Position numbers and translations under genes: made by a program. This document shows, one piece after another, positions 6,526 to 62,480 of a stretch of 64,000 nt of DNA. The notes beneath the pieces were generated by a model. The model saw only the letters and a program-made list of their open reading frames with translations, was not told the DNA's origin and did not search any database. The stretch's first letter is position 1; the number at the start of each line of letters is the position of its first letter. This stretch comes from Chiloscyllium plagiosum (Eukaryota): NCBI RefSeq assembly GCF_004010195.1, contig NC_057718.1, positions 41,820,444 through 41,884,443 on the forward strand, written 5' to 3'.

Positions 6526-8651
6526 ACATATAATTAAAAAAAAAATTAAGACAGTTCAGTTAATATTTAAGGTGATAATATTGAATTTTGAGGTCTTGTA
6601 ACAGGAGGGGTTAGAAGGTTGCCATTGCAACAGTTGCACACAGATATCAAGTCTATTTTCCTACATGTTGGTGCTAGTATGTTGCCATATCTCCTTATTT
6701 CTCCTCATTAAACTTGGGCACCTCAACACATCATATCTCCTGACTTTGTCTTTCAGGTTCTGAAGTGGATTTCTAGTATTCCTGGAACCTTGTATGTTGA
6801 TGTGGTCCTAACTCCTGTCTATGTTTGTTCAAAAATACATCCATTTGGAGGCCTCTATGCTGGATGTATTGACATACGGGCCGTGTGGCAAAACTCAATA
6901 CATTGCAGCAAGATCAATGGAATTTCCTGCAATTGCTGGGTAGAGGTTCCCCTTTTCTCCTGAATCAATGAGCTTAAAGGGCAGGCAAGAAGAATCTAGA
7001 AGTAACACTATCTGTGTTGGAACTTCACATAGTCATCAAGGTTTCCTTCACCAACATGATCTACAGCCCTCAATTCTATGAATTAGAGACAACTTCCTTG
7101 TGCACAGTTATGTGAGAAGCTGAAGGCTCACAACCATTGTGGATTGTTTCTCGCTCTTGCCCTGCTGGTTAGCAGTTTTGTTTGTTAAAAGCGGACAATA
7201 CAGGTGGTTTAGCATTTGGTTGTGCCAGGAGGTGCAACTTAATATCTGTGTTCCAACTTGTGTAAAAGATGATTGCTCAGTATTCAAGTGGTTTGGGATG
7301 CCAGGTAAACCTGGTGAGAAAGTATATGTGCATTGGAAACCTTTCCCATTTACAGTAACTAAGAGTTGTAATTCCAGACAGGGCAGTTTGTATGCTTAAA
7401 TTGCAATGGCAAAAGCACTGCTTCCATTTTATGAGATTAGAAAATACACCCATTTCTTTGGAGCTTCTTCAAGCTAAAATCTAAATGTTTATTTTGCTCT
7501 TGTGACTGATAAATGTGACGTCTGCAGTCCTTCAGCTGACTGCCACCAAAATGGTGATCTGCCTCTGTTGCACCTTCTTTAACATCCAGTTTGTTCTTTT
7601 CAAAGCAGAGAGTTCTGCACTTGACCCTGGACAAATGAATATTGTCTTCATCATCATCTGTTATGACAACAGCAAATTAAAAAAGCTTGTCTGCCACATT
7701 CCTCCCCATTGCTTTATGTGTATGGGGAAAGCACACAGATTCAATTGCAGTTATTTAAATAAACTGGCCTCTTTGATAATGTCAGCTTAACCACTCCACC
7801 AAGACAAACTGCATGGGCTTAAATGCTGTCATCCATTGTATTCTCAGTTAAGTGAATCATAATGCGCTGAGCTACCTAACGCATTCCTATGTTACTGTGT
7901 TCTTATCCCTCTGTATTTAATATTGACTTTATTCAAATAAGTGGATAGAATGCCAAGACCCAGCACCATCAGCCTGAAGTTACTCTTGTGATTGTGAAAG
8001 GGCACTTGGGTTAATGACACCGAGGGGTAGTCTCAGTTGATCTAATTATTAACTTTCCATTGTCACTTATTTTCACAGAGCAAATATTGTGATCAACCCT
8101 GACAGTCTTCTGCTGTGCAAGTGGCATTTAAAGGATGGCGCTTTTTGAAAATTTTTGTTCGCATCAGAAGCAAAGTACTTGACATTTACATGAATGATTT
8201 TTCATCACAAAAAGGCTTTCAATAAGGAAATTGAATTAAATATACTCTCTTCTAACATGGCTAGAGCAATAAAATTAATGCATTTATGAACGAGTTAACT
8301 GTTCTCCCTTAAAAACACTGTTGAATCATTAGAACACCAGAATATCAAATCAAGGATAGGTTAAGCTGTTCTGAAACCACTCCATCCCTTAGACTTGTTT
8401 GTTCATAGCTGTTTCCAAGATCCATTAGTGGGAAGCAGTTTCTTATCCCCATCTTTTGACCCAAGTCCAGAACTTGGTTGTAACATGGATCAACAGAAAA
8501 ATGTTTCAAATTTACTTGCAAGAATTAATTCGCAATAAATATGACAATGAGAGTTGCCAGACTGCACAGCATCCTTAGTATTCTGAGCTGAGAACAGGTA
8601 CTACCATTGGGCTAGTATTCAACATATATAGACTGTATACAATGCATAATC

Positions 8652-9345
8652 CTTCACCATTTCCGCCACCTACAAACAGACCCGACCACCAGAGATGTAT
8701 TTCCCTCCCCATCCCTACCTGCTTTCCGTAAAGACCATTCCCTCTGTGACTCTCTTGCCAGGTCCACGCCCCCCACCAACCCACCCTCCCCTCCCAGACC
8801 TTCCCCTGCCACCGTAGGAATTGCAAAACCTGCACCCACACTTCCCCCCTCACCTCTGTCCAAGTCCCAAAGGAGCCTTCACATCCATCAGAGTTTTACC
8901 GGCACTTCCACACATGTTATTTACTGTATCCATTGCTCTCGATGCAGTCTCCTCTATATTAGGGAGATAGGGTGCCTATTTGCAGAACACTTCAGGGAAC
9001 ATCTCCAGGATACCCGCGCCAACCAAACCCACCACCCCATGGCTAAACACTTCAACTCCCCCTCCCACTGTGCCAAAGACATGCAGGTCCTGGGCCTCCT
9101 CCATCACCACTCCCTCACCTCCCGATGCCTGGAGGAAGAACACCTCGTCTACCATCTTGGGACTCTCCAACCACATGGCATCAATGTGGATTTCACAAGT
9201 TTCCATTTATCTCTCCACCCCCACTCCCCACCCCCAGCTCACAAACCTCATTCTTGATGAAGGACTTTTGCCCAAAATGTTGATTTCCCCTCCTCCTCGG
9301 ATGCTGCCTGACCTGTGTGCTTTACCAGCACCAACTCTTGACTTC
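8652..9345 (+). mobile_element. Penelope-like element, GIY-YIG endonuclease remnant plus pLTR
   Basis: Translates to FRHLQTDPTTRDVFPSP, FPCHRRNCKTC, VIYCIHCSRCSLLYI (GIY-YIG), AKHFNSPSH and LGTLQPHGINVDF. A decayed hammerhead TTGATGA..AAAATGTT lies at 9254-9281. Confidence 0.92.
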
Positions 9346-13224: not shown

Positions 13225-13350
13225 CAAACTCAGAGAATGCTAGGGAAAATCAATAGGTCTGGCAGCATCTGTGGAGAGAGAAACAGACTTAAAGTTTCTC
13301 CAGCATTCTCTGTGTTTGTTCCAGATTTCAGCATCCGCAGTGTTTTACCA
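13225..13350. mobile_element. Inverted pair of PLE pLTR fragments with the centre deleted
   Basis: CAGAGAATGCT..GGCAGCATCTG (minus copy) is joined to CCAGCATTCTCTG..CAGCATCCGCAG (plus copy); same family as 34055-34270 and 48449-48596. Confidence 0.65.
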
Positions 13351-14309
13351 TTATTCAAGTTATTCATTTGAACATGCAGATCAGATGGGATTGGATCCAG
13401 GAGCAGAGTGTTAGGTTCCCAGAAATTGGAAAGGTGTTGGGAAACCAGCTCCAACTTGCCAGTTTCCTGCTTTAACTCAGGTTGAGGGAGTGGGGGTGGG
13501 TCAGAAAGAAACAAACAGCAAAACTTGCAGATGGTGAATATAGTTCTTATATACTTCAAAATGCAGGTCCAGAATAAACAGTATTTTAATTTTACTGGGA
13601 TTTAACTATTTATTCCATCTCCAATCCCAGGTGACAGGATAGCATTTTATATGGAAACTGAAAGATTCAGACATAATCACTTTAACAGTGGCTGGTCAGA
13701 TGAGCTTCAGGAAACTGGCAGCTATAGCAAAATCAGGACAGCAGCTTTAGAAATAAGAGCAGAAGTAGACCAAATATTCAACTATTCAATCCCAACATCT
13801 TTGGTTTGAATTCTACTTCCCTTTGGCAAACATACGTTTTGGGGTGAAAAGAGCAGAGGTACTTCCTCTAAGGCATTCCCTCTCAAGCTCCCTATCCCCA
13901 AACCTCTAGGCCATCAGAAGCACAGGAATTAGACACCTCTCCCTCAGTGGACCTGTTTGCCATACCCATTAACCCAACAATCAGAATCCCACCCTGCCTT
14001 CTGTGGACAGGGAATCAAACCTATCTAGTTCTGCAGCATCTCTTCAGAATTCCCCACCCTAATGAGGGGAACCCTGTTGGAGGAGCCTAACTATAATGTT
14101 ACACACATAGTATGGAAATAAAATCCACAGTTTGGAAGTCTACGTTACTATACATTATTGGGTTTCCCTCATTCTGGTTCAATCACTATATTTCAATTTG
14201 ACCTGCAAAGTTCTAAAATTCTCTACATGTTTGCTAACTGGTTATAGATTTCTTTTCCACCTCTATTTTTGTCCAGAGTTTTTACTGTAATATAGGATAA
14301 TGTTTGTTA

Positions 14310-14490: not shown

Positions 14491-15720
14491 GCTCCTCCGC
14501 CGTTGAGCCCCGCCCCTCCAACCGCCACCAGGACAGAACCCCACTGGTCCTCACCTACCACCCCACCAATCTCCATGTNNNNNNNNNNNNNNNNNNNNNN
14601 NNNNNNNNNNNNNNNNNNNNNNNNNNNNNNNNNNNNNNNNNNNNNNNNNNNNNNNNNNNNNNNNNNNNNNNNNNNNNNNNNNNNNNNNNNNNNNNNNNNN
14701 NNNNNNNNNNNNNNNNNNNNNNNNNNNNNNNNNNNNNNNNNNNNNNNNNNNNNNNNNNNNNNNNNNNNNNNNNNNNNNNNNNNNNNNNNNNNNNNNNNNN
14801 NNNNNNNNNNNNNNNNNNNNNNNNNNNNNNNNNNNNNNNNNNNNNNNNNNNNNNNNNNNNNNNNNNNNNNNNNNNNNNNNNNNNNNNNNNNNNNNNNNNN
14901 NNNNNNNNNNNNNNNNNNNNNNNNNNNNNNNNNNNNNNNNNNNNNNNNNNNNNNNNNNNNNNNNNNNNNNNNNNNNNNNNNNNNNNNNNNNNNNNNNNNN
15001 NNNNNNNNNNNNNNNNNNNNNNNNNNNNNNNNNNNNNNNNNNNNNNNNNNNNNNNNNNNNNNNNNNNNNNNNNNNNNNNNNNNNNNNNNNNNNNNNNNNN
15101 NNNNNNNNNNNNNNNNNNNNNNNNNNNNNNNNNNNNNNNNNNNNNNNNNNNNNNNNNNNNNNNNNNNNNNNNNNNNNNNNNNNNNNNNNNNNNNNNNNNN
15201 NNNNNNNNNNNNNNNNNNNNNNNNNNNNNNNNNNNNNNNNNNNNNNNNNNNNNNNNNNNNNNNNNNNNNNNNNNNNNNNNNNNNNNNNNNNNNNNNNNNN
15301 NNNNNNNNNNNNNNNNNNNNNNNNNNNNNNNNNNNNNNNNNNNNNNNNNNNNNNNNNNNNNNNNNNNNNNNNNNNNNNNNNNNNNNNNNNNNNNNNNNNN
15401 NNNNNNNNNNNNNNNNNNNNNNNNCAGCACCGCCTTCCTAACCTGCAATCTTCTTCCTGACCTCTCCGCCCCCACCCCACTCCAGCCTATCACCCTCACC
15501 TTGACCTCCTTCCACCTATCGCATTTCCAACACCCCTCCCCCAAGTCCCTCCTCCCTACCTTTTATCTTAGCCTGCTGGGCACACTTTCCTAATTCCTGA
15601 AGAAGGGCTTATGCCCGAAACGTCGATTATCCTGTTCCTTGGATGCTGCCTGACCTGCTGCGCTTTTCCAGCAACACATTTTCAGCTCTGATCTCCAGCA
15701 TCTGCAGTCCTCACTTTCTC
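14491..15720 (+). mobile_element. Penelope-like element insertion, mostly in an assembly gap, with 15-bp TSD
   Basis: TSD CACCACATCTAATCC at 14476-14490 and 15721-15735. The 5' part encodes RTPLVLTYHPTNLH, and the 3' pLTR carries a hammerhead. Confidence 0.9.
15597..15624 (+). ncRNA. Minimal type-I hammerhead ribozyme motif (PLE-type)
   Basis: CTGAAGA-A-GGGC-TTAT-GCCC-GAAA-CGTC with a C-G closing pair for stem I; all core positions intact. Confidence 0.82.
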
Positions 15721-16117
15721 CACCACATCTAATCCCTCAACCACTGATGCTCAGTAGCAGCATGGTGCACCATCTGCACAGTGTATTGCAGAAATTTACC
15801 AAGGCTCCATAGGCAGAACCCTTTTAAATCCATGGTCACTTCCATTTAGAGGGAGAAGGGCAGCAAATACATGGGAATATCGCCACATGCAAGTTCCCCT
15901 CCAATCACTTGCCATCCTGACATGAAATGTATCATTCCTTTGCTGGATCAAAATCCTGGAATTCCCTCCCTAATGGCATTGTGTGTCCACCTACAGCAAA
16001 TGGATTGCAGTGGTTTCAGAAGGCGGCTCGCCAACAACTTCCCTAGACCAACTAGATACAGGCAATTAATGCTGACCCAGCCAGCAATACCCAGGTCTCA
16101 AGAGTAAATAAAGAAAA
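15721..16117 (+). mobile_element. CR1/L2-group LINE 3' end (continuation of 14310-14490)
   Basis: Resumes after the TSD; CCTGGAATTCCCTCCCTAA (WNSLP) followed by the 3' UTR and an A-rich end. Confidence 0.8.
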
Positions 16118-28068: not shown

Positions 28069-29008
28069 AAGTCATGGACTGAACATTGTGAACCTCACTT
28101 TCCTGCATACTTCCACAGCTATTGGGAAAATGTTAACTGTTAGCACTGTTTCTCTTTGCAGATGTTGCCTGACCTGCTGAGATTTTCCAGTTTTGTTTTC
28201 TTATTTGTTGCTTTCTTTTTTTCACAATTGTCATGGATTTCTTTTACTTTATTACCTCTGTTGGACATTTCCATTAACTTTATTTCTTTGTTCACTTTTA
28301 TCAAAATGTTGCTTTGAAACAAATATAATTAACATCTGATGTCTTTCTGTTTGCTTGTCCTGCCAAAACCATAAAATATTCACTAAATATTTCACAAAAA
28401 GAGGAATAAGTTTTTGGACTTTAAGAAACGAACAGGGGTCTGGGATTAATTGCATAAATGCTTCTAAGAAAACAAACGGACCAGATTGTTGCTTTCTGTG
28501 CTATTTCATTCTTTGAATCTATAATTTTAAGTCCACTTAAATAGTAAACTCCAGACAATTAAATACTGCCAATGGCTCAGATTGCAATTAAAGATGAACA
28601 GCAATGGGTTATTCCAAGAACTGGGCATTTTTCAACTAACTCGTGGGCTGGCACACAAAATTTAAACAAAACAGATTTATCAGGATGTTGTCAGGAATGG
28701 AGGGTTTAAGTTATAAGGAGAGGCTGGCTATGTTGGGAGTTTTCTCACTGGAACAACGAAGTTTATAAAATTATGAGGGGTATAGATGAGGTGAATGGCA
28801 GGAATCTTTTATCGAGGATGAGGGATTTCAAGACGAGTGGGCATAATCTTAAGGTGAGAGGAGTAAGATTTAAAAAAGACATGGGGGCAATTTTTGTTAC
28901 ATAGAGAGTGGTTTGTGCATTGAATGAACTTCCAAATGAAGTGGTGAATGCGGGTACAGTTGGAACTTTTAAAAGATATTTGGACAAATACATGAACAAG
29001 AAAGACTT

Positions 29009-29578: not shown

Positions 29579-29667
29579 TGAAGATTTGGAGGGATGTTGC
29601 CCAGGTATGACTTGTGTAGTTTGGAATTATAGTCAGCATGGACTAGTTGAACTGAAGGAAGTTCAAC

Positions 29668-29779
29668 TTGGCACACTCTCCTCATTCCTAAAGACGGGCT
29701 TACGCCCGAAACGTCAATTCTCCTGCTCCTTGGATGCTGCCTGACCTGCTGCGCTTTTCCAGCAACACATTTTTCAGTG
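29668..29779 (+). mobile_element. Short PLE pLTR insertion with mutated hammerhead (29688-29715) and 15-bp TSD
   Basis: TSD TAGTTGAACTGAAGG at 29644-29658 and 29780-29794. Core CTAAAGA..GAAACGTC carries a G5>A change. Confidence 0.88.
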
Positions 29780-33442: not shown

Positions 33443-34052
33443 CTATGGGTATGGAAGGCTTGAGATATAAAAAAATGGTTGGTTAGGCTGGGACTTCTTC
33501 CTTTGGAATGTAGGAGGTTGAGAGGTGACCTGATGGAAGTTTATAAAATAATGAGAGATACAAATTGAGTTAATGGTATTTGTCTTTTCCCTAGGATGGA
33601 GAATTTCAAGATTAGGGGGCACATTTTTAAGGTGAGAGGAGAAAAATTTACAGAAGACATAAGAGGCAATTTTTTTACACAGAGGTTGGTTTGCATGTGG
33701 AATGAACATCCTAAGAAAGTGGTGGATGTGATTACAATTACAACATTTAAAAGACATTTGAATAGATACATGAATAAGAAAGGCTTGGAGGGATATGGGC
33801 AATGAGCAGGCAGGTGGGATTAAAAAGGTAAAAACAATGACTGCAGATGCTGGAAACCAGATTCTGGATCAGTGGTGCTGGAAGAGCACAGCAATTCAGG
33901 CAGCATCCAAGGACAGGCCTGCCCTCGGATGCTGCCTGAATTGCTGTGCTCTTCCAGCACCACTGATCCAGGCAGGTGGGATTAGTTTAGTTTGGGATTA
34001 TCTTCGGCATGGACTGGTTAGACAAGAAGGGCTGTATGACTCTATGACTCTA
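33443..34052 (+). mobile_element. CR1-clade LINE 3' fragment interrupted by a palindromic PLE insertion
   Basis: RGHIFKVRGEKFTEDIRGNFFTQRLVCMWNEHP; (TATGACTC)n tail at 34035-34052. Confidence 0.92.
33823..33968. mobile_element. Inverted (palindromic) PLE pLTR insertion with 16-bp TSD
   Basis: TSD CAGGCAGGTGGGATTA at 33807-33822 and 33969-33984; both arms match 102-141 and 320-373. Confidence 0.9.
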
Positions 34053-34054
34053 TT

Positions 34055-34270
34055 GGATAAACTCAGCCATTCTGGCAGTATCTATGGCGAGAAAGCAGAG
34101 TCAATGTTTCAAGTTTTGTGACCCTAAATCAGAAAAGTCCTATGAAGGGTCATTTGATCCAAAACATTGACTCTACTTTCTCTCCATAGATGCTACTAGA
34201 CCTACTGAGTTTCTCCAGCTATTTCAGTTTTTGTTTCCGATTTCCAACATCCACAATTTGTGGTTTTGTT
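34055..34270. mobile_element. Head-to-head pair of older PLE pLTRs with decayed hammerheads
   Basis: Minus copy CTGATTTAGGGTCA..GAAACATTGACTCT (34103-34132) and plus copy CCTATGAAGGGTCA..AAAACATTGACTCT (34139-34174). Confidence 0.75.
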
Positions 34271-47165: not shown

Positions 47166-48217
47166 AGCCATAATCACAAAGGCTAGAGAATTGATGTAAT
47201 AGTGTCTCACCCTGGTGTAACTCTGCTCACAACAGAGGCTCAGGAAATGTACTGTTAAAATTTCCCTGTCTGTACATGTTTCATGAATGGTTATAACCTG
47301 TCACCTGGTGGCTTTGAGCATCAGCTGGAATTTCAGCTTCTATTTGGAGCAATACTATCAGAGTATCATCTATCTTTTTAAAAAATTATTTCTTGTCTTT
47401 TTTTAAACATTTTGTAAAGGGTTAATGTATCTAAGTAATACTAAGCCAGTCTTCTGATCTTTTTTTCCCCAACTGATCTCAGCTTCAGCTTCATCTCAGT
47501 GGGAGACAAGTGATGGTGTTTATTCACTGCAGCTCAAGCACTCACTCAAGTTGCCACTGGAGCTTTCAACAATCACCAAGAGACAAGCCAATTCCAAGCT
47601 ATCGTCATTTCACAGAATAACATCAGACATAACACATGGCATGTCCTGTTACTGCGGTGCATCAAGCAGCAAATTTACACATTGCCAACACAAAAGATTG
47701 CAAAGTGGAGGTAGTCCTGCTCAGACTATATAATGCACTGAAGCAGTGCATAGGCAGTAAAAATGTGAGATTTTCAATCCAGCAAAGAAATAACCAAAAG
47801 AAGCATGTTCTGGTAAATTACTTCAAGTAAATTTGGAACGCTACTTCAAATTTACTATTAGTAGTAGGATGAGTAGCATAAGCATAAAATCTTTGCTTCA
47901 ACTTGAGAAACACATTTTCACAGAGAAACACAAGGAGCAATATTCCAGATGTTACATGATACTGTATCTCACCATCGCATTTCTTGTCCCATCCATGTCT
48001 CAAAATTGCTTAACTATATTTTCAATATCCAATAGTGGATGAAACAAATATCCTCTGCCAAAATATTTGAAGGCCAAATCCATTGCTTTCAGTACCTACC
48101 ACCAACTTCACTTCCTAGCCTCTGATTCCATCTTTTTTCCTGGGAACTGTTGGGCACTGAATTAGTTTGTTCACAATCTTGGTATCATGTTTGAATTTGA
48201 AATGAACTTTCAACTGC

Positions 48218-48348
48218 ATTCCTGATGAAGGGCTTTTGCCTGAAACGTCGATTTTACTGCTCCTCAGATGCTGCCTGAACTGCTGTGCTTTTCCAGCACC
48301 ACTCTAATTTAGACTCTGGTTCCCAGCATCTGCAGTCTTTGTTTTTAC
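48218..48348 (+). mobile_element. Stand-alone hammerhead-bearing PLE pLTR insert (core 48222-48249)
   Basis: ATTCCTGATGAAGGGCTTTTGCCTGAAACGTCG..., flanked by CTGCAT at 48214-48219 and 48349-48354. Confidence 0.88.
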
Positions 48349-48448
48349 CTGCATATTCATATTGTCAATAAGACCACCTGTTCCTACCTAGACAACATTC
48401 CCCTCAACTAACCTACTGCTGAAAGCTTCATTCATGCATTTGTTAGCT

Positions 48449-48596
48449 TTCCAGCTTTCCAGCTTTGACAAAGGATCAGTTAGACTCGAAACGTCAGCTC
48501 TTTTCTCTCCTTACAGATGCTGCCAGACCTGCTGAGATTTTCCAGCATCTTCTCTTTTGGCTTCAGATTCTAGCATCTGCAGTAATTTGCTTTTAT
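48449..48596 (+). mobile_element. Stand-alone PLE pLTR insert of a second family (decayed hammerhead 48465-48495)
   Basis: TSD TTTGTTAGCT at 48439-48448 and 48597-48606. AGCT-TTGACAA..GACTC-GAAACGTC-AGCT provides an AGCT/AGCT stem I. Confidence 0.82.
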
Positions 48597-50235
48597 TTTG
48601 TTAGCTCTACTCATTGTTATTTCAATGTACTTCGGGCCAATTCCCCATGTTCTATCCTCTGTTAACTTGAAGTTGTTTAGACCGTACTATCACTAGTTTT
48701 AACATAGAAACATATAAATTCGAAGCAGTGGTAGGCCATTCATCTTTTGAGCCTCCCCTATCATTCAGTATTATGATGTCTGATCATCCAACTCTGTCCA
48801 CCTTTCTCTTGTAATCTTTTATCCCTTGAGCCCGAAGAATTATATCTAATTTCTTCTGGGAAATATTCAATGGTTTGGCCTCAACTACTTTCTGTAGCAC
48901 AGAATTCTAAAGGCTCACCACTTTCTGGGTGAAGAATTTCCTCTTCATCTCCATCCTAAATTGCATATCCTGTATCGTTAAACTGTGACCTCTGGGTCTG
49001 GATTCCCTGGTCTCTGGGAATGTCTTCCTGATTTACAGTATCCAACTCCCAATAAATTCTGATCAATGAAATGCATCTGTACTTTGTAACTTGCATTGGT
49101 TTAAGCAACACCCTGATTTTAAAGTTCCCTCCTTTCTGATATCTCTCCTTTTGGGCTCTCTCCTCCCTTTCTCTGTAATTTCCTCTAATGCCTCAACCTT
49201 CTGAATTATTTACACTGTATGAATTCTTGTCTCTCAAACCTTCCTAATTTTAATTGCTCCATCATTGGTGGATGTATCTTCAGCTACCAGGGCTCAAAGC
49301 TCTTCCTAAAATCCTTCCTAAAATCTTTCATTCCTCCTTAAGGATATTCCTTAAAAACTAATTCAATTATCAAGCTTTTGCTCATCTGCCCTAATTATTC
49401 TTCTCTAGCTTGGTAACAAATTTTGATAGCTACTGTCCTGTGAAATTCCTTGGAACATTTTATTATATTACATATGCTAAATAGTTAAAAACTACGTGCT
49501 GCTATTCTGCAGAATGAAGGCTTTTTCTCACTACTACCTATTGGGCTTAATCCTTATTCAATCTCTTCACAATGAAGCAACAGAGTGTTTGGAGTAGAAT
49601 TAAAAATTGTTGCAACACTTTAACGATTTATCTTGTCAATCTTCAGAGCTTGTTCTGGTTACTTTGGTGTAATTTTCAACAATGACAATTATTACACTCA
49701 AAGGATTATGGAAAGTCTTGCATTTCTGGCAGGAAGTGTTTTTCAACTTCATATAATTAGTAGTGCAGCGCAGTTGTAATGTCTCTAACTTGGAGCTAAG
49801 ACTAGAGAAATAAACACATGGTTCAGAGACTGGTTTGGGAAGGAAGGATTTCAGTTCATGAAACACTGGCATTAGTACTCAGGGAAGAGGCACCTATTCC
49901 ATAGGGATGAGCTCCACTTCAACCAGACTGGGGCCAGTGTACTGTTCACTTAGGTAACTAGTGCAATAAAGTAACTGAAAGCACAGGGAAGGGTTTGGTG
50001 ATGGCAGTTTTAGAAATCCAAAGTAAAAGATCAAGGAGATAGAATGGTGTAGTAATATCAGTAAAGACTTGTAAAGTGGAACAGAAAAAGACAGAGAGTT
50101 TAACAGTAATTGTGCATCATCCATGCAGGGAATATTACCAAAAGAAATTTATCTGCATGGATGAAACATCCACAATAAGGAAGTTGAACTAATGGCATAG
50201 CAGAGATAAAGGGGATAGATTTAATTGCTACTATA

Positions 50236-51625
50236 CACCATAAGACATAGGAGCATAAATTAGTCCATTCAGCCCATCAAATCTTCTCCAACATTCAATC
50301 ATGGCTGAAAAGTTACTCAACCTCATTCTCCCGGTTGGTGGCTAAATTGCCCATAGGGATAAGTGCATTAGTCAGAGGAAAGTGGGTCTGGATGGGGTAC
50401 TCTTCGGAGGGTTGGTGTGGACTGGTTGGGCCAAAGGGCCTGCTTCCACACTGTAGGGGATCTAATCTAGTCTATAAAAAAAAACGTTGATCCCCTTGAC
50501 ACTCAAGAACTGATCTATCTCAATCTTAAATATACTCAATGACCTGGTGTCCACAGTCTTCTGTGGCAATGAATTCCATGGATTCGCCATTCTTTGGCTG
50601 AAGAAGTTTCTCCTTATCTCCATTCTAAAAGGTCTTCCCTTTACTCCAAGACCCTTGGGTCCTAGTCTCTCCTTCCATTAGAAACATCTTCCCAACATTT
50701 ACTCTGCTCAGGCCATTCAGTATTCTGCATGCTTCCATTAGATTGCCCTCTCATCCTTCTAAACTCCTTTGGGTATAAACCCAGAGTCCTCAAACATTCC
50801 TCATATGTTAAGCTTTTCATACCTGACACCATTCTTGTGAACGTCCTCTGAACATGTTCCAGGGTCAGTACATCCTTCCTGAAATATGGGGCCCAAACCT
50901 GCACACAATACTCCAAATGTGGTCTGACCAGAGCCTTACAGAGCCTCAGAAGTACATCCCTGCTTTTACATTCAAGTCCTCTCAAAATAAATGCCAGCAT
51001 TGCATGTGCCTTCTTAACTACTGACTCAACCTGCAAGGTTACCTTGAGAGAATCCTGGACTAGAACTTCCAAGTCTCTTTGCACTGCAGACTTCTGAATT
51101 TTCTCCCCATTTAGAAAATAGTCCATGCCTCTATTGTTCAAAGTACATGACCTTACTCTTTCCCACATTGTACTCCATCTGTCACTCCTTTGCCTACTCT
51201 CCTAACCTGTCCAAATCCTTCTGTAGCCTCCCTAACTCCTCAATGCCACCTGTCCCTCTGCCTACCTATCTGCAAGCTTAGCCAGAATACCCTCAGTTCC
51301 TTCATTTAGATCATTAATGTATGAAGTGAAAAATTGTGGTCCTAACACTGACCCTTGCTGAACACCACTTGTCACCAGCTGCCATCCTGAGAAAGACCCT
51401 TTTATCCCCACTCTCTGCTTTCTGCCAGACAGCCAAGCTTCTATCCATGCTAGCACCTTGCCTCTAACACCATGCGCCTTTATCTTACTCAGTAGCCTCC
51501 TGTGCGGCACCTTGTCAAAGGCATTCTTGAAGTCCAGGTAGATAATATCCATTGGCTCTCCTTGGTCTAAACTGTTCATTACTTCCTCAAAGAATTCTCA
51601 CAGATTTGTCAGACATGACTTCCCA
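50236..51625 (-). mobile_element. CR1-clade LINE RT and 3' end, with a nested 5'-truncated HE1 SINE (50337-50483, plus)
   Basis: YLDFKNAFDKVPHRRLL, SGVQQGSVLGPQFFTSYINDL and LVRPHLEYCVQVWAP. Confidence 0.95.
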
Positions 51626-52734
51626 GAGACATTGGATCGAATCTTACCCAAAATTGGTTCAGTGTAACTGTTGTTGAGTTTCATGAAGGGTTTCTCACAG
51701 TGGAGCCTGGCAAGTTTGTTTGACTATTGTTCAAAACCCATCTCATTAACTATGTATCATCCTACATAGCGCTTACTGCTTTGATGCTAACTTGATTGTC
51801 TCAAGCATCCAAGGTAGAGATACTCATCCATACTGCCATGATATTCTGGGATCCCTAGTGCTGGCATCTAATTTGATTGCCAGCATTGCATATGATCAAG
51901 TGTTGTCCTTTACCATGCTGATAGTAGAATAGTAATCACAAAACAATGCTTCTTAGGGCATATAGGTATCACAGTTGAAACTTCCATTTCTCTGAGCCTT
52001 CATTTCATTGCAACAGCAATAAACTCCTGCTGTGGTTAAAAACATCAATCATACTTGCAGTGAACTTGTGTGGGAAACATAAAAAACAGAACAGGTCCTT
52101 AGTGATACAATCACTCAGCATTCACATCACTCACAATTAGTGGTTTACCTTGCTCTCCATACAGTGGGACATGTGTGACGTAAACTGTGGGATTTATTTG
52201 TATAATTTTAAATGTTATTTATTGTGATTTATTTATTTATTTATTCTGCTTTTGGAATTAGTAACTGGTGGGGTTTCTGTCTGTCTGAAGTTTATAATTC
52301 ATTTGTAATCATTTTCATAGCTGTGGTAATTTATTTTGAAAACAGCTCTTGAGGCCTAGCTTCAGAATTAATGGACTTTTGTTTGTATAGATTGTTTTAC
52401 AAACAAGCAAGGTAAATAATGGGGCCTCAATGTTTGTTAAAGAGTTTTGGAACTTGTTTATGTTGGGATGGTTGTATTGAGCAGTGCTCCTGAGAAAGAA
52501 AAGTATTAATATTGAATCAGGTTACCCTAAAGTGAATAATTAATTTCAGTTCCAGACCAGAAGTGTTGGGAGAAAACCCTAAGAAAAAGACTTATTGAGG
52601 ACCCTCGAGCAGATATATGAAACACAAATGACTTAACTCCTCTGTGGTGAGAGATACAGGGACACTGGTTTGAATATTATATGAGTGTTTATTTGGGTAT
52701 TGTACAAAAGCTGGTTTGTTTCTTTGTCAATTTT

Positions 52735-53045
52735 TAAAAATTCATTCATAGGATGTGGACATCACTGTCTAGGCCAGCATTTATTACCCAGAGGGAAGCT
52801 GCAAGTCAACCACATTGCTGTGGGTCTGGGATCACATGTACACCAGACTAGGTAAGGATTGTAGGCCTTCCCTAATGGACATTGGTGAATGAGATGGATT
52901 TTCCCCATCAGCAATGGTTTCATGGTCAGCGTTAGACTTATAATTCCAGACTTTTTTCGTCTCATTGGATTCAAACCGGGCCTCCCTGAATATTCTCGGG
53001 ATTACCAATCTAGCAATAATTCCATTAGGCCATCACCTATCCTTC
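52735..53045 (-). mobile_element. tRNA-headed SINE (family of 30978-31366)
   Basis: AGTCAACCACATTGCTGTGGGTCTGG..GGTAAGGAT block on the opposite strand. Confidence 0.82.
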
Positions 53046-53204
53046 ATTGAGAAGAGCATTTGGGATTAATGGTAGTATATTTTTACTGTGTTTAAAAAAT
53101 CTTTGAATTTGTAATAAAAGTAGACAGTTTGGGTTATTCTATATTATCTTCACTTTATTTATTAATGAACCTAAGTTTTATTGCAACACCAATAACAATG
53201 CAAT

Positions 53205-53372
53205 TTTAAAATTGTATTCATTTATGGGATGTGGGCATTGCTGGTTGGTCAGCATTTACTGCCCATCCCTAGTTACCCTTGAGAAGGTGATGATGAGCTG
53301 CCTTCTTGAACTGCTGCAGTCCACCTGCTGTGGGTCAATCCACAATGCCATTAAGGAGGGAATTTCAGGATG
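53205..53372 (-). mobile_element. 3' end of a CR1/L2-group LINE
   Basis: Reverse-similar to 15955-16117. Confidence 0.8.
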
Positions 53373-53519
53373 AATGTCAATGTTTCAGTGAGAGATGACT
53401 TTGCTAAAACCAAAACAAATATGAATATGATCTATCAAGCCAGGTTCATGTCTGGAATCAACCCCCTCCACAGCATCCCATGTCTCCCATGCACTTCCAG
53501 AAGGTAGCTGGAGTTAGAG

Positions 53520-54455
53520 CTGGAGGTAATAAATGAGCATACATCATGGATTGGTTAAGGGACAGGAAACAAACAGTAGACATAAATAGGGCATTTCAAG
53601 ATGGCAGGCTGTGCCCAGTGGAATGTCACAAGGATTCATACTGGAACTTCAGCTATCTATAAGTTATGATAATGACCTTAGTGAAGAAACTAATGTATCT
53701 AGATTTTTTTTAGATAAGAGGAAAGGTAAGCTGTGAGAAGAACTGAGAGAGAGGTTGCAAAGGGAAGTAACCAGGTTAAATCAGTGGGCAACAGTGTAGG
53801 TAAGGATGAGGTTATTCACTCTGGTGGGAAGAATAGAAAAGCAGGGCATTTTTTTTAAATGTGAAACACATGAATGATGATGTTTAGAGAGGCTTGCTTG
53901 TGCTGTAAAAATGAATGCAGAATGCTAGCTTGCAGATACAGCTAGAAATTGGGAAGACAAATGTCCTGATGGTCTTTGTTGTAAGGGGATTGGCGTACAT
54001 GAATAAAGAAGTCTTGCTGCTAGCATAGAGGAGTTTTATCAGACTGCATCTGGAATACTTTGTTCAGTTTTTTTCAGTTTTGTTCAGTTTTGATCTCAAT
54101 ATTTAAGAAAGGATATATTTGTATTGGAGGTTCATTAGCTTGGCCTTTGTGTTGAGAAGCTGATTAAATTGGTCTTTAATTCTCTAGAGTTTAGAAGAAT
54201 GAATGCAATGTCATTGGAACATACAAGATCTTCATGGGATTGATAGGCAGGATGCTGTTTGGAGAATCTAGAACACAATGCACAGTCTTAGCATAAGGAG
54301 CCAATCATGAGATGAGGAGAAACTACATCACTCAAAAGCTTGGGAATCTTTGGCTTTTTGGACCCCAGAGGTTTATGGATTTTCATTGTTTAATACGTTC
54401 AAAGCTGGAATGGACAGATGTTTGGTCTCTCGGGATCTAGTTGCTCCTATTTCTC
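53520..54455 (+). mobile_element. Old CR1-clade LINE RT/3' fragment
   Basis: Degenerate DWLRDRKQ.V, SGMSQGFILELQL, IRLHLEYFVQF and SLEFRRM motifs. Confidence 0.8.
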
Positions 54456-55590
54456 ATTATATTTAGTGAAAAGTGTTTTTCATTTAGCTGCAGAAATGAC
54501 AGCAAGATCCCAGTGAATATGTCATTCCATACATTGTGTCTGGTAATAAATGAGTGTCATCAGCATATGTTGATATTTGTTTATTATTCTAACTGATTGC
54601 AGCATCACATAGACCAACTAATGACTAGAAGTTGTCAAAGAATTGATTAATTAGCACCACATATTGTAATTATACATACGTTCTGTCTTTTGTTTTGTGA
54701 ATTTCAAGTTTATTTAGCTTACTCAGGTAATAAAAATATAAGTAACTTGTATAAGATCAAATTGATTAGTTGGATAAGTGGCTAAGTGAACTAGTAGTTA
54801 AAAGGACCCACTGTTTACTATAATGATGACTAATTCATCATTAAATATTCAGAAAGGCAATAAGCCATGGACTAGCCTTGGTTCTTACAAGGTTAACTGC
54901 AGAGGATTATTCAAGATAAAAAAATGTATATATAAACAACAGCAGCTATAAAGTCCAGATAGTAGAGTAAGTTTAACTGTTCAAATGAGGAAAATGCCCT
55001 TTAAACAATCAAAACAAGATCTCTGACTTGCTGTCCAATGAGACTAAGTGATCAGGGACATCAGAGACCAAATCAGATAAATGATAATTACATAAACTCA
55101 AGTGAAGCGCATTTATTAATACATTGAACATGTTCAATGGGAGTTGATGAAACATGGGCTATATTACATAACTGCGGAACACCAAATACCTCAGGCATGA
55201 CAAAATTATCATTTGCTACCACTGTATTCATTCAGCAACAGAGTAAGAAGACAAAGGTTCATCATTTTAATGTTTTTTTATGGTGCCAAGTCACATTTAC
55301 CAGTTCAGAGCCCAGGTGCTAATCAGTAGTTCATATGAAAGTGGCAGAGGTAGACTTATCTTCGAAGTCTAACTTTTCCTATTTCTCAATATGAAAACAT
55401 CTGATATGAGACTGTCACCATTTTGTTCAAGCTTATCAGAGGCTAGAAATTCATAGAATTCCAGTTCTACTGAGCTTCCATCTCATCACTTGTGGTATAA
55501 AAACAACTTAAATTTTTATAGCACCGAACAAAATAAAATACTCCAAGGGGATTTATAAAAGTGTTATAAAGATACCAAACCACATAAATG

Positions 55591-55683
55591 ATTCCTGAAG
55601 AAGGGCTTATGCCCGAAACGTCGATTCTCCTGTTCCTTGGATGCTGCCTGACCTGCTGCGCTTTTCCAACAACACATTTTCAG
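55591..55683 (+). mobile_element. Stand-alone hammerhead-bearing PLE pLTR insert (intact core 55595-55622)
   Basis: ATTCCTGAAGAAGGGCTTATGCCCGAAACGTCG..., flanked by CACATAAA at 55581-55588 and 55684-55691; nearly identical to 15593-15686. Confidence 0.9.
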
Positions 55684-55898
55684 CACATAAAAGATTATGC
55701 TGGATGACCAAAACCTGCACACAAGGTATGTTTTAAGAAGTTACTTAAAGGGGAAAACTGAGATGAAGAGAAAAAGGAAGGCCATCTCAGAGATTGGAAC
55801 CTGGACAACTGAAGTCACAGTTCATAGTAGTGGCACAATTATAATTGAGAATGTACAAAAGACCAGGTTTAGAGAAACAGAGGTGTCATGGAGATTTA

Positions 55899-56028
55899 GA
55901 GAAAGTGAGGACTGCAGATGTTGGGGAGTCAGAGTCAAGAAGTGAGGCACTGGAAAAGCACAGCAGGTCAGGCAGCATCCATGGAACAGGAGAGTCGATG
56001 TTTCGGGCATAAGCCCTTCATCAGGAAT
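55899..56028 (-). mobile_element. Stand-alone hammerhead-bearing PLE pLTR insert (core 55997-56024)
   Basis: Reverse strand ATTCCTGATGAAGGGCTTATGCCCGAAACATCG...CATCTGCAGTCCTCACTTTCTC. Confidence 0.88.
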
Positions 56029-59000
56029 ATGGAATCAGGAATCATGGGGGGTTGTGAGATTGGAGGAGATTCAGAAATAGAGACGGCAAAGTCTGTGGAG
56101 ATATTTGGAAACAAGAATGGGAATTTTCAAATCTAGGCATTGCTTAACCAGGAACTAATGTGGTTCATTGATCACAGAGGTAATAGAGGAGTGAGACTTA
56201 CTGTCTGTTTAGATACAGTAACAGAGTTTTGGTAGGGAATTCTGTTGAACTGAGGTGCAAATAGGCCTTCTCAGAGTGCATGAAAGAAGTTGTCAATTCA
56301 TTTCAGGATCAAAGTTATAAGTTAGTGCATTATGTAAGTAATTAGTTGGTGCCGATGGAAAAAAATGGAGGCTACGCTCATATTAATAGAGAACAAAGGC
56401 AAAATATTTGTTTTATAATTGGAGAAAAACTCTCAATCTGTGTCTTATGTTAAGTTTATTCTCATTTCTCTATCTTTCACTCTTTCATTCTTTTAATCGT
56501 TGTCCATTTAAAATTTCTAATCAGTGCTGGAGTGACTAATGTTCACTTCAGAATGTGTGAGATTATCAAGAAACCAATTTAAATTTTAAATTAATTTTTT
56601 TTAAATGCAGGATTGAAATGTCAATGATAATCTTGAAGGTCAGTGCATACTGGTGTTCTTGGGGATAGGCACATTCTGGGCTAACATGAATTCAGAGAGA
56701 AGCTTAAAGAGGATCTCTGAGTATTTGAATAAGAATATCTAGAAATACAGTTTCCTTTTAGGTGTTACTTTTAGTGCTATTTTTAGTTGTGCTCGGAGGT
56801 TTCGATCAAAAGGTTTGCATGTCAAATTTTCAAATCCGATAGTTATATTTGAGTTTCACTGGAAAGTCCTCTATTTTGTTATTTTTTTGGTGAAAGAAAA
56901 AATATGTGAGAGGTCAGATTGTTTCAGCTGGAAAGTAACAGTGAAGCTGTATCATTTAGTAGAGGCACACCTTAAAACAATAAAAGAAAAATATAAATTT
57001 GTGAGATCCTTCTGAGCTTTGAACTTCAGTCAAGTTGGCATGGCTAGTGGCTGTCAAGGTGATGCTGGTCTTTTACACCTCAAGCTTATTTCAAGCTGGT
57101 ATAGGGAACGAGAGGAATAGCAATCAATCTGCTGGCCACCAACATGTCAAGTGTATGGTTCACATTTCACATCCTCAAGCACAAAGAATGAAAGTGTGGC
57201 TTTGTCCTACGACACCTCATAAAGCAAACGGTGCCAAGTAGGTGTCGGGTGAAGAGTGAGTGGAGGTGATTGTGTGTATAGTTGAATATGTAGATTTTAA
57301 GGTGAGTTTAAATTCCAACTTCCCAGAAACAAAGTGGTACTTAACTATATTTTTTCCATTCCATAGTCATTTTAGCATTTCACTTTTATTGACTAGCTGC
57401 AGCATCTTCCTTGCTTTGTGGAGAACAATTTATCAATGAATACAAAGCAGTCCATCTTATAATGCAAATTCCTTTCCAGATACTTGAGAAGGAAAAATAA
57501 TGGAAGAGCCTGATGGCATTGTCCTGATGAAAATCCTCCATGTAAGACAATTGACAAATTCTTAATTTAATTTGCATCATCACGTTGCATAGTTCTACAA
57601 AGTGACAGAACCTTTTCAAGTACTCTATCATAAAGATCTTTAGAAGCTCACTGTAAATGTCATAAGAGGGCACTATTACTGTTATATTTATACATTATCA
57701 AAAAACTAAAGCAGTAACTTGCCTATTTTCAGCACCTTTACCATCATAGTAAATATCGAGGTGAATATGAAAATGACTCATATAAGGAAGTACTATGAGG
57801 AGAAGGGGTTGGGGGTGCAGTGAGGTTTAGGAACAAAAGTCCAGAGCTTTAGGCTATTGCAGATGAATGCACTGGTGCTATTGGTAGAATGATTAAAATT
57901 GGGATAAACTTTGTACTATTTTGCCAGGATTTCCACTGACATTACTACTAGACATTGGAAGAATCCTTTGGAAGGGAAGGCGTTATTGTCTACACCTGAT
58001 TGCAGCTGGGGGGACACATAATTAGCTGTGGATTCCGATTTTCTGTAACAGTACCATTTGCACAGCTGTGATGGACACTTTCTGTTTTAAAGGGGCAGGT
58101 TATTCATAGCAATGAAAACATATCAAAGCTTTGTTTTACCAAAAAAAACTTTAGCTGACTCAAAGATGTGGCAATAGTTGCAATGTCTTTCCTGCTTCCA
58201 GAATAACATTAAAATTATATTTTAACACCAGCTTCGGACTCTGGGCTACATCAACTCTTTCCTTTCACCTGTCATAGGTAATTTGCCCATTTTCTTTTGT
58301 TGTAGTCCTCAGGTAGGTGCTGGGGAGGGGAAACAGAAGACAATTGGGGAGACAAAGTAAAGACATTCAAGAATAAATTCCACATTAAAGGGCAATGTCT
58401 TCCATAATGGTAAAAGCTCCCAGTACAGACATCTTAGGGCGTTCAGCACAAACAAACATGAAGCTCTTTCATTATACAAACAAACAAGTGGTGATAGTCC
58501 TTATTTTAGGATTGTCTCCCAAAATTGGGTTACCCTGAATACCACCAACTACAGTCAGAATAACCAGGCTGTATGCAATATTACAGGCAGTCTGAATTAG
58601 TACTTTGAAGGATAAATCTGAAAACAAACATCTGAATATAGAGCTGGGAGGAGCAGAAGTGCAGAACTCAGTTTTACACTGACCCCAAAGACCGTACACC
58701 AGACTTACACCTGTAAAACTGGCACTGTGTCAACTAATTTCAAAGTCAATATTTTATTCATTTTACGCCATCCAGCCCAAGCCTGAGAAGAAGTATCAAT
58801 GGTTGCCAGAGACAGTCAGTTGTTTTTGATGTTAGAGACTGTCTTTAGCTCTGCTTGTGTGTAGAATGCTTTTCATTCATCAGTCCTGCTTTGTTTAGTG
58901 TCATTGAGAAGACACCACTTAATTTTAGCAGCTTTCACTTTTAGTTTGTGGGAAGAAAATATCTGGATGGAGATGAGCAAGAGTTACAGCAAGAGAGATA

Positions 59001-61409
59001 CTTTTACACCACTCTCAGCATTTTGTCAAACAAAGCATTCACATGGGGAATGGAGGAACAATAGATTGTAAAACCAGACTCTTCCCTCTAATGTCAGTAA
59101 ATGGGTATTTAATCTTCCTACTGCAGACATGCATTCTCTAGAGCATGTAATGAATATACTGTAGGGGACATTAGCTGAGCTGTTGTGCCTTCCAACCAAA
59201 AATATCATCAATATTTATTTCGGGTGTGGTCTAAAGATATCTGTGCTCAGCCAGTTCCCAGAAGACCATAGGAGTCTGTGCTTTTTTGAGATGGAGAAGC
59301 CTGTGGGAGTTTTCTGTTAACTGTGTAATTGTGCCTGTCTTTGTCTGTTATCTGACACCGATCTAGAGAGCCAAAATTTAGAAGGACATCAATTACTACC
59401 AGTTCCACATGAAGATTTTAAAGGGGTAGTCGTTACATCCCTGCATATTTTACAACCAGCATTGAAAAGCATCATCGACAATTTGTTGGAATGGAAACGT
59501 CAGGAACTTGTGAACATGTTCACTTGTCACTCACCAACGTATGTGTGATTTGTTGCAAAAACACTTCCCACCGCCCCCCACCCCCAAGCCCAGCATTATT
59601 TAAATATACAGCATCCAACCTGCAGGTAAGGCAAACTGAGACTTACTTCTGCGATTGCACAGCTTGGTCAAGCACAACGGCATGGTTTTGGAGGCTGTTG
59701 GATTTGTGATGGACCGTCCCAGCAGCTTTACAGGGAATGGTGACCTGTTCACATGAAAGTGACATTAATTACAAAGCTGCAATTTTAGTGTTTCTGGTTC
59801 TCCAACACTAATGGAACAGAGGATGTGGAGAACGAAATCCCCATGCAAAGCGATAAGGAACAAGTAAGAAGGAACAAGGATGTACTTGGGATGCCTTCAT
59901 TCCAGTGGGCCAGTGGGGTGAGGGGTACCGCCTGTGATTCGTTGATTCTTCTCTCCAGAGTAGACTTCCTGAAATTGTCATCCACAAATTGAGATTCATT
60001 GTCTTATCCTAAACCTTCCAAGAAAGCATCTGTCACAAAGATCTTTTTAATGTTCCTTTTACTGAGTTTGTTGTGATTGAATTAAGCCTTATTTATGTAA
60101 TCACTTCAATCTATCTTGAACAAAAATCAATTGAAAATAAAATCAAAAATCAGAAATCATATTGCTAATATTTCTCATGACCTTTCCAGAAATCTTGATG
60201 AAATCGTTGACTGTTTAGAATGGCAAAATGTAATCCCACATATCTCTCGAAATGCCTGGCCACCACCCTGATTATTGTGCTCTTGTTCTGTCCCTTTGTG
60301 ATGTCCATTATAGAGAAATTTTCTTCATACTGACTTTGCAGTAAGCATTCTATGGTCATACATCGATAAATGTTTCTGCTTGTCATTCCGTTTCAGCACA
60401 TAGGCTGTTGGACTATGCTTCAACTGCCCTTGCAGACAGGGTTATCTGATCCCTGTGCACTGTTGGCGGGTTATTGAGCTGCACAAATTTGTCTTGAGTC
60501 TTCCCTTAGTTGCTAATGAAGTATAAGTTATAGTTGTAGAGTAAGAGTATTTCTGCAAGATTAGATTATCAGTGAATCTTTCACATTGCCATGTCGCTAT
60601 TAGTACTTCCTTCTCTATGGGTGAATCTCTTCAGTCTGCGGCAAAGCTGCTAACATGAAATAGACTAGCTTTTGTGTCCTATCAGTTGACATTTACAGTT
60701 TGCTTCTGGTCTGCCCTTCACAGTCCATCTGTGGATATTATAATGAATAACGTATAATGAAAACTTAATACCTGAATTGTAATGTGCTAAAGCATCAGTA
60801 GAAAATAATTGTTCTTTATTCCTTTCAAAAGTTACAGACTGTTCCTGACCCTAATTGTTGGCCTTTTTTCCCAAAGATTCTCTTCTGGGTTGAATAAAAC
60901 TGGCTATGTTAAACAAACATTTCTAAGATCCACTACCCCTTATTGCTTGCTGCTAATTTTTCTAAATTATCATTAACAGACAAATGGAATGGATTTCCAC
61001 CCAAACTCTTTTATTTAACTGAGTGAAGTTCATGGGTAATCTTAGTTCTCCATTTGTCGTGGGAACAATTACTAACCTTGAACATCATCGTGTTGATTTT
61101 GTCATTAGCGACATGAACCCATTTTTAATCATGCTGTTTAACTGAGATTTTGTTTTTCCCAAAGGAAGAGGTATTTTCCTGCAAGTGTACAAGCAAATAT
61201 GTTTAGCATCCTCTTACAGCGTAATGTGGTACACCTACTTCAGTTTGTGTAAATCTTTAAAAAGCTTTGGAAATGTTTGCTGAAATTCTCTCCCTTTTTA
61301 TTGTGAAGCATTATACGCATTTTCTGTGAAAGACCTAGATAGATGTATGCATTTCTGCTCATCAATGAAGTATTTCGATTTGGAAGTATATATGGCACGG
61401 TGGCATGTG

Positions 61410-61730
61410 GGCGGCACGGTGGCACAGTGGTTATCACTGCTGCCTCGCAGCGTCAGAGACCCGGGTTCAATTCCCGCCTCAGGCGACTGACTGTGTGGAG
61501 TTTGCACGTTCTCCCCGTGTCTGCGTGGGTTTCCTCCGGGTGCTCCGGTTTCCTCCCACAGTCCAAAGATGTGCAGGTCAGGTGAATTGGCCATGCTAAA
61601 TTGCCCGTAGTGTTAGGTAAGGGGTAAATGTAGGGGTATGGGTGGGTTGCGCTTCGGCGGGTCGGTGTGGACTTGTTGGGCCGAAGGGCCTGTTTCCACA
61701 CTGTAAGTAATCTAATCTAATCTAATCTAA
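61410..61730 (+). mobile_element. HE1-type V-SINE, full-length and young
   Basis: CpG-rich, intact A and B boxes, V-domain and (TAATC)n tail; ATGGCA at 61392-61397 and 61730-61735 is the probable TSD. Confidence 0.96.
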
Positions 61731-62112
61731 TGGCATTTCACTGGCATTTTGCCCATTGTTATTAAAATCCATGGTGATTTACCCGTGCATCTGAAGATCC
61801 GAGACCTTGGAATTTGATAAGTTCTGACTCGAACAAACTTCAGCCATGGTAATTTGTCTGCCAGTATTGAAGCAAAGCTTCTGGGATGCATGTAAATTTG
61901 ATTTGCAATCCCTGTACCTTCATGTTAATGGTCCAGAATCTGTTCTGATGGTGTTTGACCTCATTTAGGAATGTTGTCTACACCTTTTGCTCTGTATTTT
62001 TAACTACTTGAATTATCTCCTATTTGTATGATTTCTATTTCTCTGGAATTTTTTCTTTGCAAGATGTTTACTTTGCTTGTGAGGTAATTGAGGTAATGTT
62101 TTCTTACAATTT

Positions 62113-62480
62113 CACAGAATCCCTTCAGTGTGGAAACAGGCCATTTGGTCCAACAGGTCCACAGTGACACTCCAAAGAGTATAGATTAAAGTGATGCTAG
62201 AAAAGCATAGCAGGTCAGGCAGCATCTGTGAAGCAGGAAAATCAATGTTTTGGGCAAAAGCCCTTCATCAGGAATACTCCAAAGAGTAACCTGCCCAGAC
62301 CTATTCTCCTACCCTATTACTCCACATTCCCCCTAACACGGCCAATTCACCTAACCTGTACATCTTTGGATTGTGGGAGGAAACCCACGCAGACACTGGG
62401 AGAATGAGCAAACTCAACACAGTCCCCCAAGGCTGGAATCGAACCCTGAGGCAGCAGTGCTAACCACTAAGCTACCGTGT
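62113..62480 (-). mobile_element. HE1-type V-SINE with a nested PLE insert
   Basis: Reverse-strand HE1 head at about 62480 and tail at about 62113; interrupted at 62182-62275. Confidence 0.9.
62182..62275 (-). mobile_element. Stand-alone PLE pLTR insert (decayed hammerhead 62244-62271) with 13-bp TSD
   Basis: TSD ACTCCAAAGAGTA at 62169-62181 and 62276-62288. The reverse strand begins ATTCCTGATGAAGGGCTTTTGCCCAAAACATT. Confidence 0.9.

Follow-up and report, generated by a model that had tools for sequence, protein, structure and literature searches.

The 64,000-nucleotide stretch of Chiloscyllium plagiosum DNA analysed here (contig NC_057718.1, positions 41,820,444 to 41,884,443, forward strand; hereafter the window) contains short inserts bearing a minimal hammerhead ribozyme motif from the pseudo-long terminal repeat (pLTR) of Penelope-like elements (PLEs). 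These inserts are end-pieces of Neptune-type PLEs and not a discrete retrozyme or short interspersed element (SINE). The left edge that they have in common is most likely the point where transcription of the autonomous elements begins, which would put the ribozyme at the very start of the RNA, to be copied uncut. Probably, internally primed reverse transcription, beginning at about +93 or +130, runs off the capped 5' end of the uncut PLE mRNA; in this numbering +1 is the A of ATTCC in families A, B and C or the A of AGCT in family 2.

The element class itself is already known, as are minimal hammerheads in PLE pLTRs, the U3-A8 core variant, tails, inverted copies and 5' truncation. The new part is the class of copies bounded by the start, since in the open-access literature searched we found no prior description of a start-site-bounded class with TATA spacing and an extra G.

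Short inserts and their shared 5' boundary

Four inserts of the first family group lie at 48218..48348 and 55591..55683 on the plus strand and at 55899..56028 and 62182..62275 on the minus strand, all starting ATTCCTGA(T/A)GA, as the original prediction had stated; the target-site duplications (TSDs) of 6, 8 and 13 bp that it gave for three of them are exact. The first insert spans +1 to about +131, tail included, and its 6-bp TSD (copies at 48214 and 48349) overlaps +1/+2. The second, a young family-B copy running from +1 to +93 without a tail, has its minimal hammerhead core at 55595-55622 and is 97.8% identical to a long copy at 15593. It is preceded at 55581..55590 (plus strand) by the 8-bp TSD (55581-55588, second copy 55684-55691) and then by the letters T and G. 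The third (+1 to +130) shows a stutter of the 5' end upstream, occurs in related organisms too and has no adjacent TSD that could be seen, while the fourth (+1 to +94, 13-bp TSD at 62169 and 62276) sits within another repeat. The cores of the inserts ending at 56028 and 62275 are decayed.

The 55591 site is empty on orthologous contigs of two related organisms (runs X15 and X20): 103 bases are skipped in both, corresponding to 93 of insert, 8 of TSD and the 2 extra letters, T and G, which the empty site lacks. The orthologues had been proposed as a test for deletion remnants, and they did not show the insert to be one. The host repeat around 62182 is uninterrupted in three other copies examined (gaps -13, -14 and -13). 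The TSDs and empty sites thus indicate that the inserts integrated already short.

A second-family PLE insert (48461..48596, plus strand) carries the U3-A8 core variant. Its predicted 10-bp TSD was found to be exact (48439-48448, second copy at 48597), but not its predicted start some 12 nt before stem I, as the templated sequence begins at 48461, on the first base of stem I. The 12 nt at 48449..48460 (plus strand), between the TSD and the templated start, are filler at the junction that repeats the first bases of the insert in a stutter; in long family-2 copies a T-run occupies this place. Repeats of the element's first 5-9 bases were seen at the 5' junctions of L039, L118, L144, L187, window 56028 and 48449, as if the cDNA end had slipped and then re-primed.

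As evidence of a shared start the four inserts were a selection: of the window's copies in the first family group, nine extend as far as +1, and the five not selected continue upstream. The boundary itself stands. It was followed through the genome by exact-pattern counts, and exact matching favours young copies. A 30-base pattern downstream of the ribozyme, the 3' anchor, has 171,522 exact matches in the genome. The junction sample consisted of the first plus-strand matches listed on contig C1, with 97 of 100 analysed; 40 family-2 loci (from the first 42 matches) and 20 loci each for G, A/T and -4 G junctions were also sampled. The samples come from the start of one contig, and many copies adjoin assembly gaps. 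The 97 anchor-chosen copies comprised 43 head-to-head inverted, 35 simple, 14 gap-limited and 5 edge-limited ones, the last two classes being handled as censored. Six of the 43 inverted arms, with inner ends past +45, were left out of the arm hazard, leaving 37, and the aligner probably over-extended L087, L156, L172, L144 and L180.

In the 35 simple copies the rate of 5' ends per base at -2..+3 was 0.042 (9 ends), against 0.004-0.006 upstream; for all direct arms it was 0.071 (20 ends), and 12 of the 37 inner ends of inverted arms fell in the same interval (0.18 per base). Among 21,120 exact matches to the family-B core from +1, the preceding base was the templated C in 15,396, G in 3,444 and A or T in 2,280, which makes 5,724 junctions. 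The junction share was 27% at this base, 19% at the next and about 4% at -4 (484), and no mutated long copy was met among the 40 G or A/T junction loci fetched. For family 2 (2,420 exact matches), 21 of the 40 ends fell at -2..+5, 8 of them exactly at +1 and 5 at +3. The junctions thus peak at ATTCC, as predicted, and are not evenly spread.

The claim that the boundary lies upstream of the GUC cleavage site is also upheld, with no comparable peak at the cut itself (about 3%). The predicted cut falls after +32 in families A, B and C and after +35 in family 2. A purine preceded +33 in 3 of the first 100 matches listed (46,145 matches), against about 24% before +1, a figure in which the A share is a hand count. 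Only 3 of 97 copies had 5' ends at +33, and the ATT at +34 showed no 5'-end peak. The shared boundary is real but describes one class of copies only: upstream of it, 38 of the 97 sampled copies go on for 20 nt or more, and some of them enter a GIY-YIG frame.

Promoter-like signals at the boundary

The minimal hammerhead motif is present in the pLTR of both families, with C3-G8 / U3-A8 covariation; in both, the first base of stem I is +1 and the core starts at +5. Stem I of the first family is weak, with three pairs and a U-U mismatch. The Rfam scan gave no hammerhead at E<=1, the full hammerhead was absent from all four whole-copy folds, and single-strand folds had no significant stability except at 48218 (z -2.66, for which the 3' part is responsible). 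The U3-A8 variant is kept in nearly all family-2 copies (L141-L180) that reach the core, in covariation when set against families A and B.

All six long family-2 copies, one of which enters a GIY-YIG-type frame, have a TATA box with its first T at -31..-33. In families A, B and C the hexamer TTAT(C/T)T occupies -30..-32, in C-rich surroundings, in 25 of 27 long copies, and their +1 agrees with the Initiator consensus. No -31 box is present in the short copies. TATA boxes function at a spacing of -32 to -29 (PMC1779604), and PLE promoters and start sites have been located within the pLTR (PMC2377424, PMC3846280, PMC6765202).

A second signal is the letter at -1, which is G in 3,444 of 5,724 junctions (60%), against 24-30% expected. 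In 20 G loci read by eye, the G belonged to neither TSD nor arm in 9, came from the TSD in 6 and from the arm in 5; the TSD-derived ones often show AT microhomology. In 20 A/T loci the letter was explained in 10, unexplained in 6 and ambiguous in 4. At 55591 the junction G is missing from the empty site. Full-length L1 insertions bear an extra G that is ascribed to the cap (PMC11702581). A template jump to GATTC at +33 was rejected as the source of the G, as family 2 would then show C and the preceding letters differ from +31/+32.

The 3' ends are bimodal, with 43 of 97 at +90-99 and 33 at +125-134 (76 of 97 in two clusters). In PAc, a Poseidon element of the green anole, two internal start sites of reverse transcription bracket the tail, both strands are extended and uncut RNA is the dominant substrate (PMC11167929). 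The TATA spacing, the extra G and PAc-like internal priming together argue for priming near the cap followed by run-off.

RNA polymerase II would initiate in the upstream pLTR at +1, 30-33 nt past the TATA or AT-rich box, and the transcript would hold the module twice, after the cap and in the 3' pLTR. The PLE protein would nick the target and prime within the RNA at about +93 or +130, where the 3' ends are observed. Cap-proximal priming would leave a template of 93-135 nt, and the enzyme would run off at +1, often adding a C opposite the cap that would become the G at -1; the cDNA end would be joined to the target via 0-4 nt of microhomology, leaving a TSD. On this view each insert is a cDNA that ran off after copying the first 93-135 nt of an mRNA, made by an autonomous PLE of Neptune/Nematis type with its own endonuclease; such inserts would arise anew from each active subfamily, without the -31 box. 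Priming on both nicked strands would give head-to-head palindromes, and priming at the 3' module copy the long, randomly truncated copies. The DNA products show that the copied templates were almost never cut at GUC.

Several observations weigh against this explanation. The family-2 TATA box is one base outside the optimal window in two of six copies, and the hexamer of families A, B and C is merely TATA-like. The excess of G may not be peculiar to +1: 38 of 100 among the matches listed have G at -4, with a G:A ratio of 2.1 against 2.4 at +1 (p=0.66). The -4 control for G is itself not clean, as its 20 loci comprise 3 mutated long copies, 8 arm-derived letters, about 4 untemplated and 5 ambiguous ones, and a control at -10 (98 A, 2 T and no G among 100) failed because one subfamily has A there. 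Family A shows a smaller excess, G being found 29 times and A 21 times in 100 (p=0.09 given the base composition of the loci), and in family 2 G accounts for 5 of 9 (p=0.04-0.14). A single-cell poly(A) run (2,906 reads placed, 2% of the run) gave no pile-up of molecule ends, a weak negative from an ill-suited library. Moreover, both families have the start exactly at the edge of stem I, and position therefore cannot separate promoter from ribozyme; Pfam GIY-YIG gave one match, in one of four pieces, with an E value of 3.3e-4 that is below the cut-off; and the copies examined are all incomplete. In five of the 20 -4 loci (L213, L214, L218, L219 and L222) there are hairpins in which both arms end at -3 around a central G, which may reflect a minor start site.

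It is conceivable, although unlikely, that the ribozyme edge or the joining step sets the boundary, through drop-off of the enzyme or trimming of the RNA at stem I of a longer transcript, aided by ATT microhomology. In both families the peak does coincide with base 1 of stem I, the TSD overlaps AT or ATT in five of nine simple G loci (two being a local duplicate) and also in L185 and L199, the PAc endonuclease favours 5'-ATT-3' (PMC11167929), and the excess of G may not be confined to that position. However, the family-2 peak is at AGCT and not at ATT, with a TATA box at the correct distance, the ATT at +34 has no peak, and inverted arms, which are not joined to target DNA, stop at the same place. 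An enzyme moving 3' to 5' would also be expected to stall on the 3' side of the helix, and stem I is weak.

Run-off at the cap might be taken one step further, although we hold this extension to be doubtful. In at least two PLE families the mRNA would start on base 1 of the hammerhead, which could then act as a cap-proximal switch: RNA cut at +32/+35 would lose its cap, and copying would be confined to uncut RNA, giving thousands of 'strong-stop' mini-inserts. An internal promoter may let some of these, such as palindromes whose centres are identical, multiply again as protein-free PLE units.

Parent elements and origin of the short copies

In both families, long copies continue into frames of GIY-YIG type. 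One of the five window copies extending upstream, a long copy of the same superfamily (8616..9338, plus strand), passes from a decayed C-terminal GIY-YIG-type frame and CX4CX2C linker into the pLTR, with a hammerhead at 9250; the linker is in a shifted frame (window 8561-9300), and Pfam returned no match for the 8616..9338 piece. A long family-B copy (15425..15721, plus strand) extends about 170 nt 5' of its +1 at 15593 and has an AT-rich hexamer near -30. Fragments resembling reverse transcriptase lie near copies, with no Pfam match for such an enzyme among the pieces scanned. A CX2-5CxxC linker upstream of the GIY-YIG motif is described for endonuclease-bearing (EN+) PLEs of the Neptune/Nematis type (PMC8557442). 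The best view of the element's 5' body is L022:1501-1975, a partial tandem in which the module, with an open frame, can be followed to about +250 before it returns to upstream pLTR.

A tree of 27 short and 41 long copies over 91 columns (+3..+93), in which many forks are open, changes between the short and long labels 16 times, at least 8 of them forced by starred branches, and a single origin of the short copies appears in 0% of 200 bootstrap trees. Over the same columns, two sets of identical rows mix short and long copies. Clustering of short copies is slight (8-11 of 500 shuffles as low), and 12 simple short copies that were compared have no common upstream flank. The upstream-running copies (38 of 97) and the interspersion of short and long ones together indicate by-products of Neptune-type Penelope elements.

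The five window inserts are all single, where retrozymes have tandem units, and junctions at the cut site, which would bound such units, are rare (3 of 100 listed against about 24%). A SINE would have its own master lineage, and here short and long copies are interspersed; the 3' ends abut the TSD directly, with no A-rich or simple-repeat tail. The head consists of pLTR sequence, and Rfam detected no tRNA, 5S or 7SL-type RNA, although no dedicated tRNA scan was made. Several traits of PLEs are present: an optional tail of about 37 nt, a neighbouring inverted copy (43 of 97) and TSDs. The original prediction was thus right about the PLE origin of the inserts, and its discrete, non-autonomous, retrozyme-like unit is not supported, as short and long copies are interspersed and in two sets identical, with no common flank and no tandems.

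A non-autonomous ribozyme unit (a solo-pLTR SINE or retrozyme) with its own masters, amplified in trans, is accordingly given little probability. It would account for thousands of copies with one 5' end and two 3' ends, for the slight clustering of short copies and for one central junction common to two family-2 palindromes. The Penelope of D. virilis has an internal promoter (PMC2377424), such that a unit starting at +1 might be transcribable, and non-autonomous PLE derivatives have been described (PMC8557442; 10.64898/2026.07.22.740005). On the other hand, every subfamily has short copies, in two sets short and long ones do not differ, the 12 simple short copies have no common flank, the four inserts are not in tandem arrays and the -31 box is missing from short copies.

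The boundary could also be a 3' splice site, the inserts being cDNA of spliced RNA, which we consider very improbable. In D. virilis the Penelope intron stops where helix I begins (PMC4209133), and family 2 has a pyrimidine tract, AG at +1/+2 and 5 of 40 ends at +3. But no common upstream exon was found among the 12 simple short copies, nor by eye in family 2; the AG is included in 8 family-2 copies, and no AG precedes +1 in families A and B. An origin of the short copies by deletion from long insertions has next to no probability, in spite of the one insert in four without an adjacent TSD and of rotifer solo pLTRs without TSDs that were ascribed to recombination or deletion (PMC3846280), for TSDs lie directly against the +1 junction, the difference between empty and filled sites is just the insert and one TSD, which refutes this reading for 55591 and 62182, and the 5' junction region of 55899-56028 is the same in related organisms.

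Two inverted or duplicated arrangements deserve mention. The family-2 palindromes L146 and L149, at different loci, have one common non-trivial central junction with the tail on opposite arms, pointing to a recurrent slip or a re-copied palindrome. L123 and L124 have identical insert and flanks 3.7 kb apart, a local duplication after insertion.

Relation to known systems and further copies

Like 5'-truncated EN+ PLE insertions (PMC8557442, PMC3846280), the long copies join a pLTR to a C-terminal GIY-YIG-type frame with a CX4CX2C linker. Those insertions are described with a pLTR, a tail of 30-40 bp and an adjacent inverted copy, and the present ones have a tail of about 37 nt, an inverted neighbour in 43 of 97 and TSDs. 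Unlike their random truncation, the sharp class seen here ends at +1; a promoter-like box lies 30-33 nt before it, and G is in excess at -1. As in PAc (PMC11167929), there are two 3' ends around a tail past the hammerhead, an uncut template and no ends at the cut site. The clade is different, however, a genomic 5'-end peak at the presumed transcription start is seen here, and our start sites are deduced from DNA alone.

The hammerheads resemble the minimal ones of metazoan PLEs (PMC4209133) in the core CUGANGA...GAAA, a loopless palindromic helix III, a short helix I, an extra base before stem II, mostly single dispersed copies and the U3-A8 variant in family 2. They differ in a stem II of 4-5 bp, and the self-scission and circular templates proposed in that paper are not shown by the junctions. 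With non-LTR retrozymes (PMC7229834; 10.64898/2026.07.22.740005) the inserts have in common that they are non-coding, hammerhead-bearing, derived from PLE pLTRs and dispersed as monomers. Retrozymes are described as tandem repeats of 150-450 bp, processed cut-to-cut into linear and circular RNA, whereas the present inserts are single or head-to-head, 93-135 bp long, bounded by +1 and the start of reverse transcription, and without a lineage of their own. Full-length LINE-1 insertions (PMC11702581) are similar in run-off at the RNA 5' end, an extra G and a discrete TSD; LINE-1 primes at the RNA 3' end and yields kilobase products, while here the products measure about 100 bp, as would follow from internal priming, and microhomology is common.

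These comparisons bear on the transposition cycle of PLEs and the role of their hammerhead. If the boundary is the cap site, genomic copies would map PLE promoters to the base without RNA data, they would be the in vivo counterpart of the in vitro result with PAc (uncut RNA, internal priming), and the abundance of solo minimal hammerheads in vertebrate genomes would be explained without circles or a separate SINE.

Other copies were noted in the window. A palindromic head-to-head insert of the same family at 33828-33964 has no ribozyme core and a 16-bp TSD (33807/33969); two weak Rfam miRNA matches on it were judged to be chance. Near-identical long copies at 1-141 and 281-366, 218 bp apart over an N gap, are a partial tandem or an assembly artefact. 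The copy at 29660-29773, which has a 15-bp TSD and filler, begins about 17 nt 5' of +1. Further families are represented by relatives of the module that have diverged more, at 13232-13354, 28139-28190 and 34054-34242.

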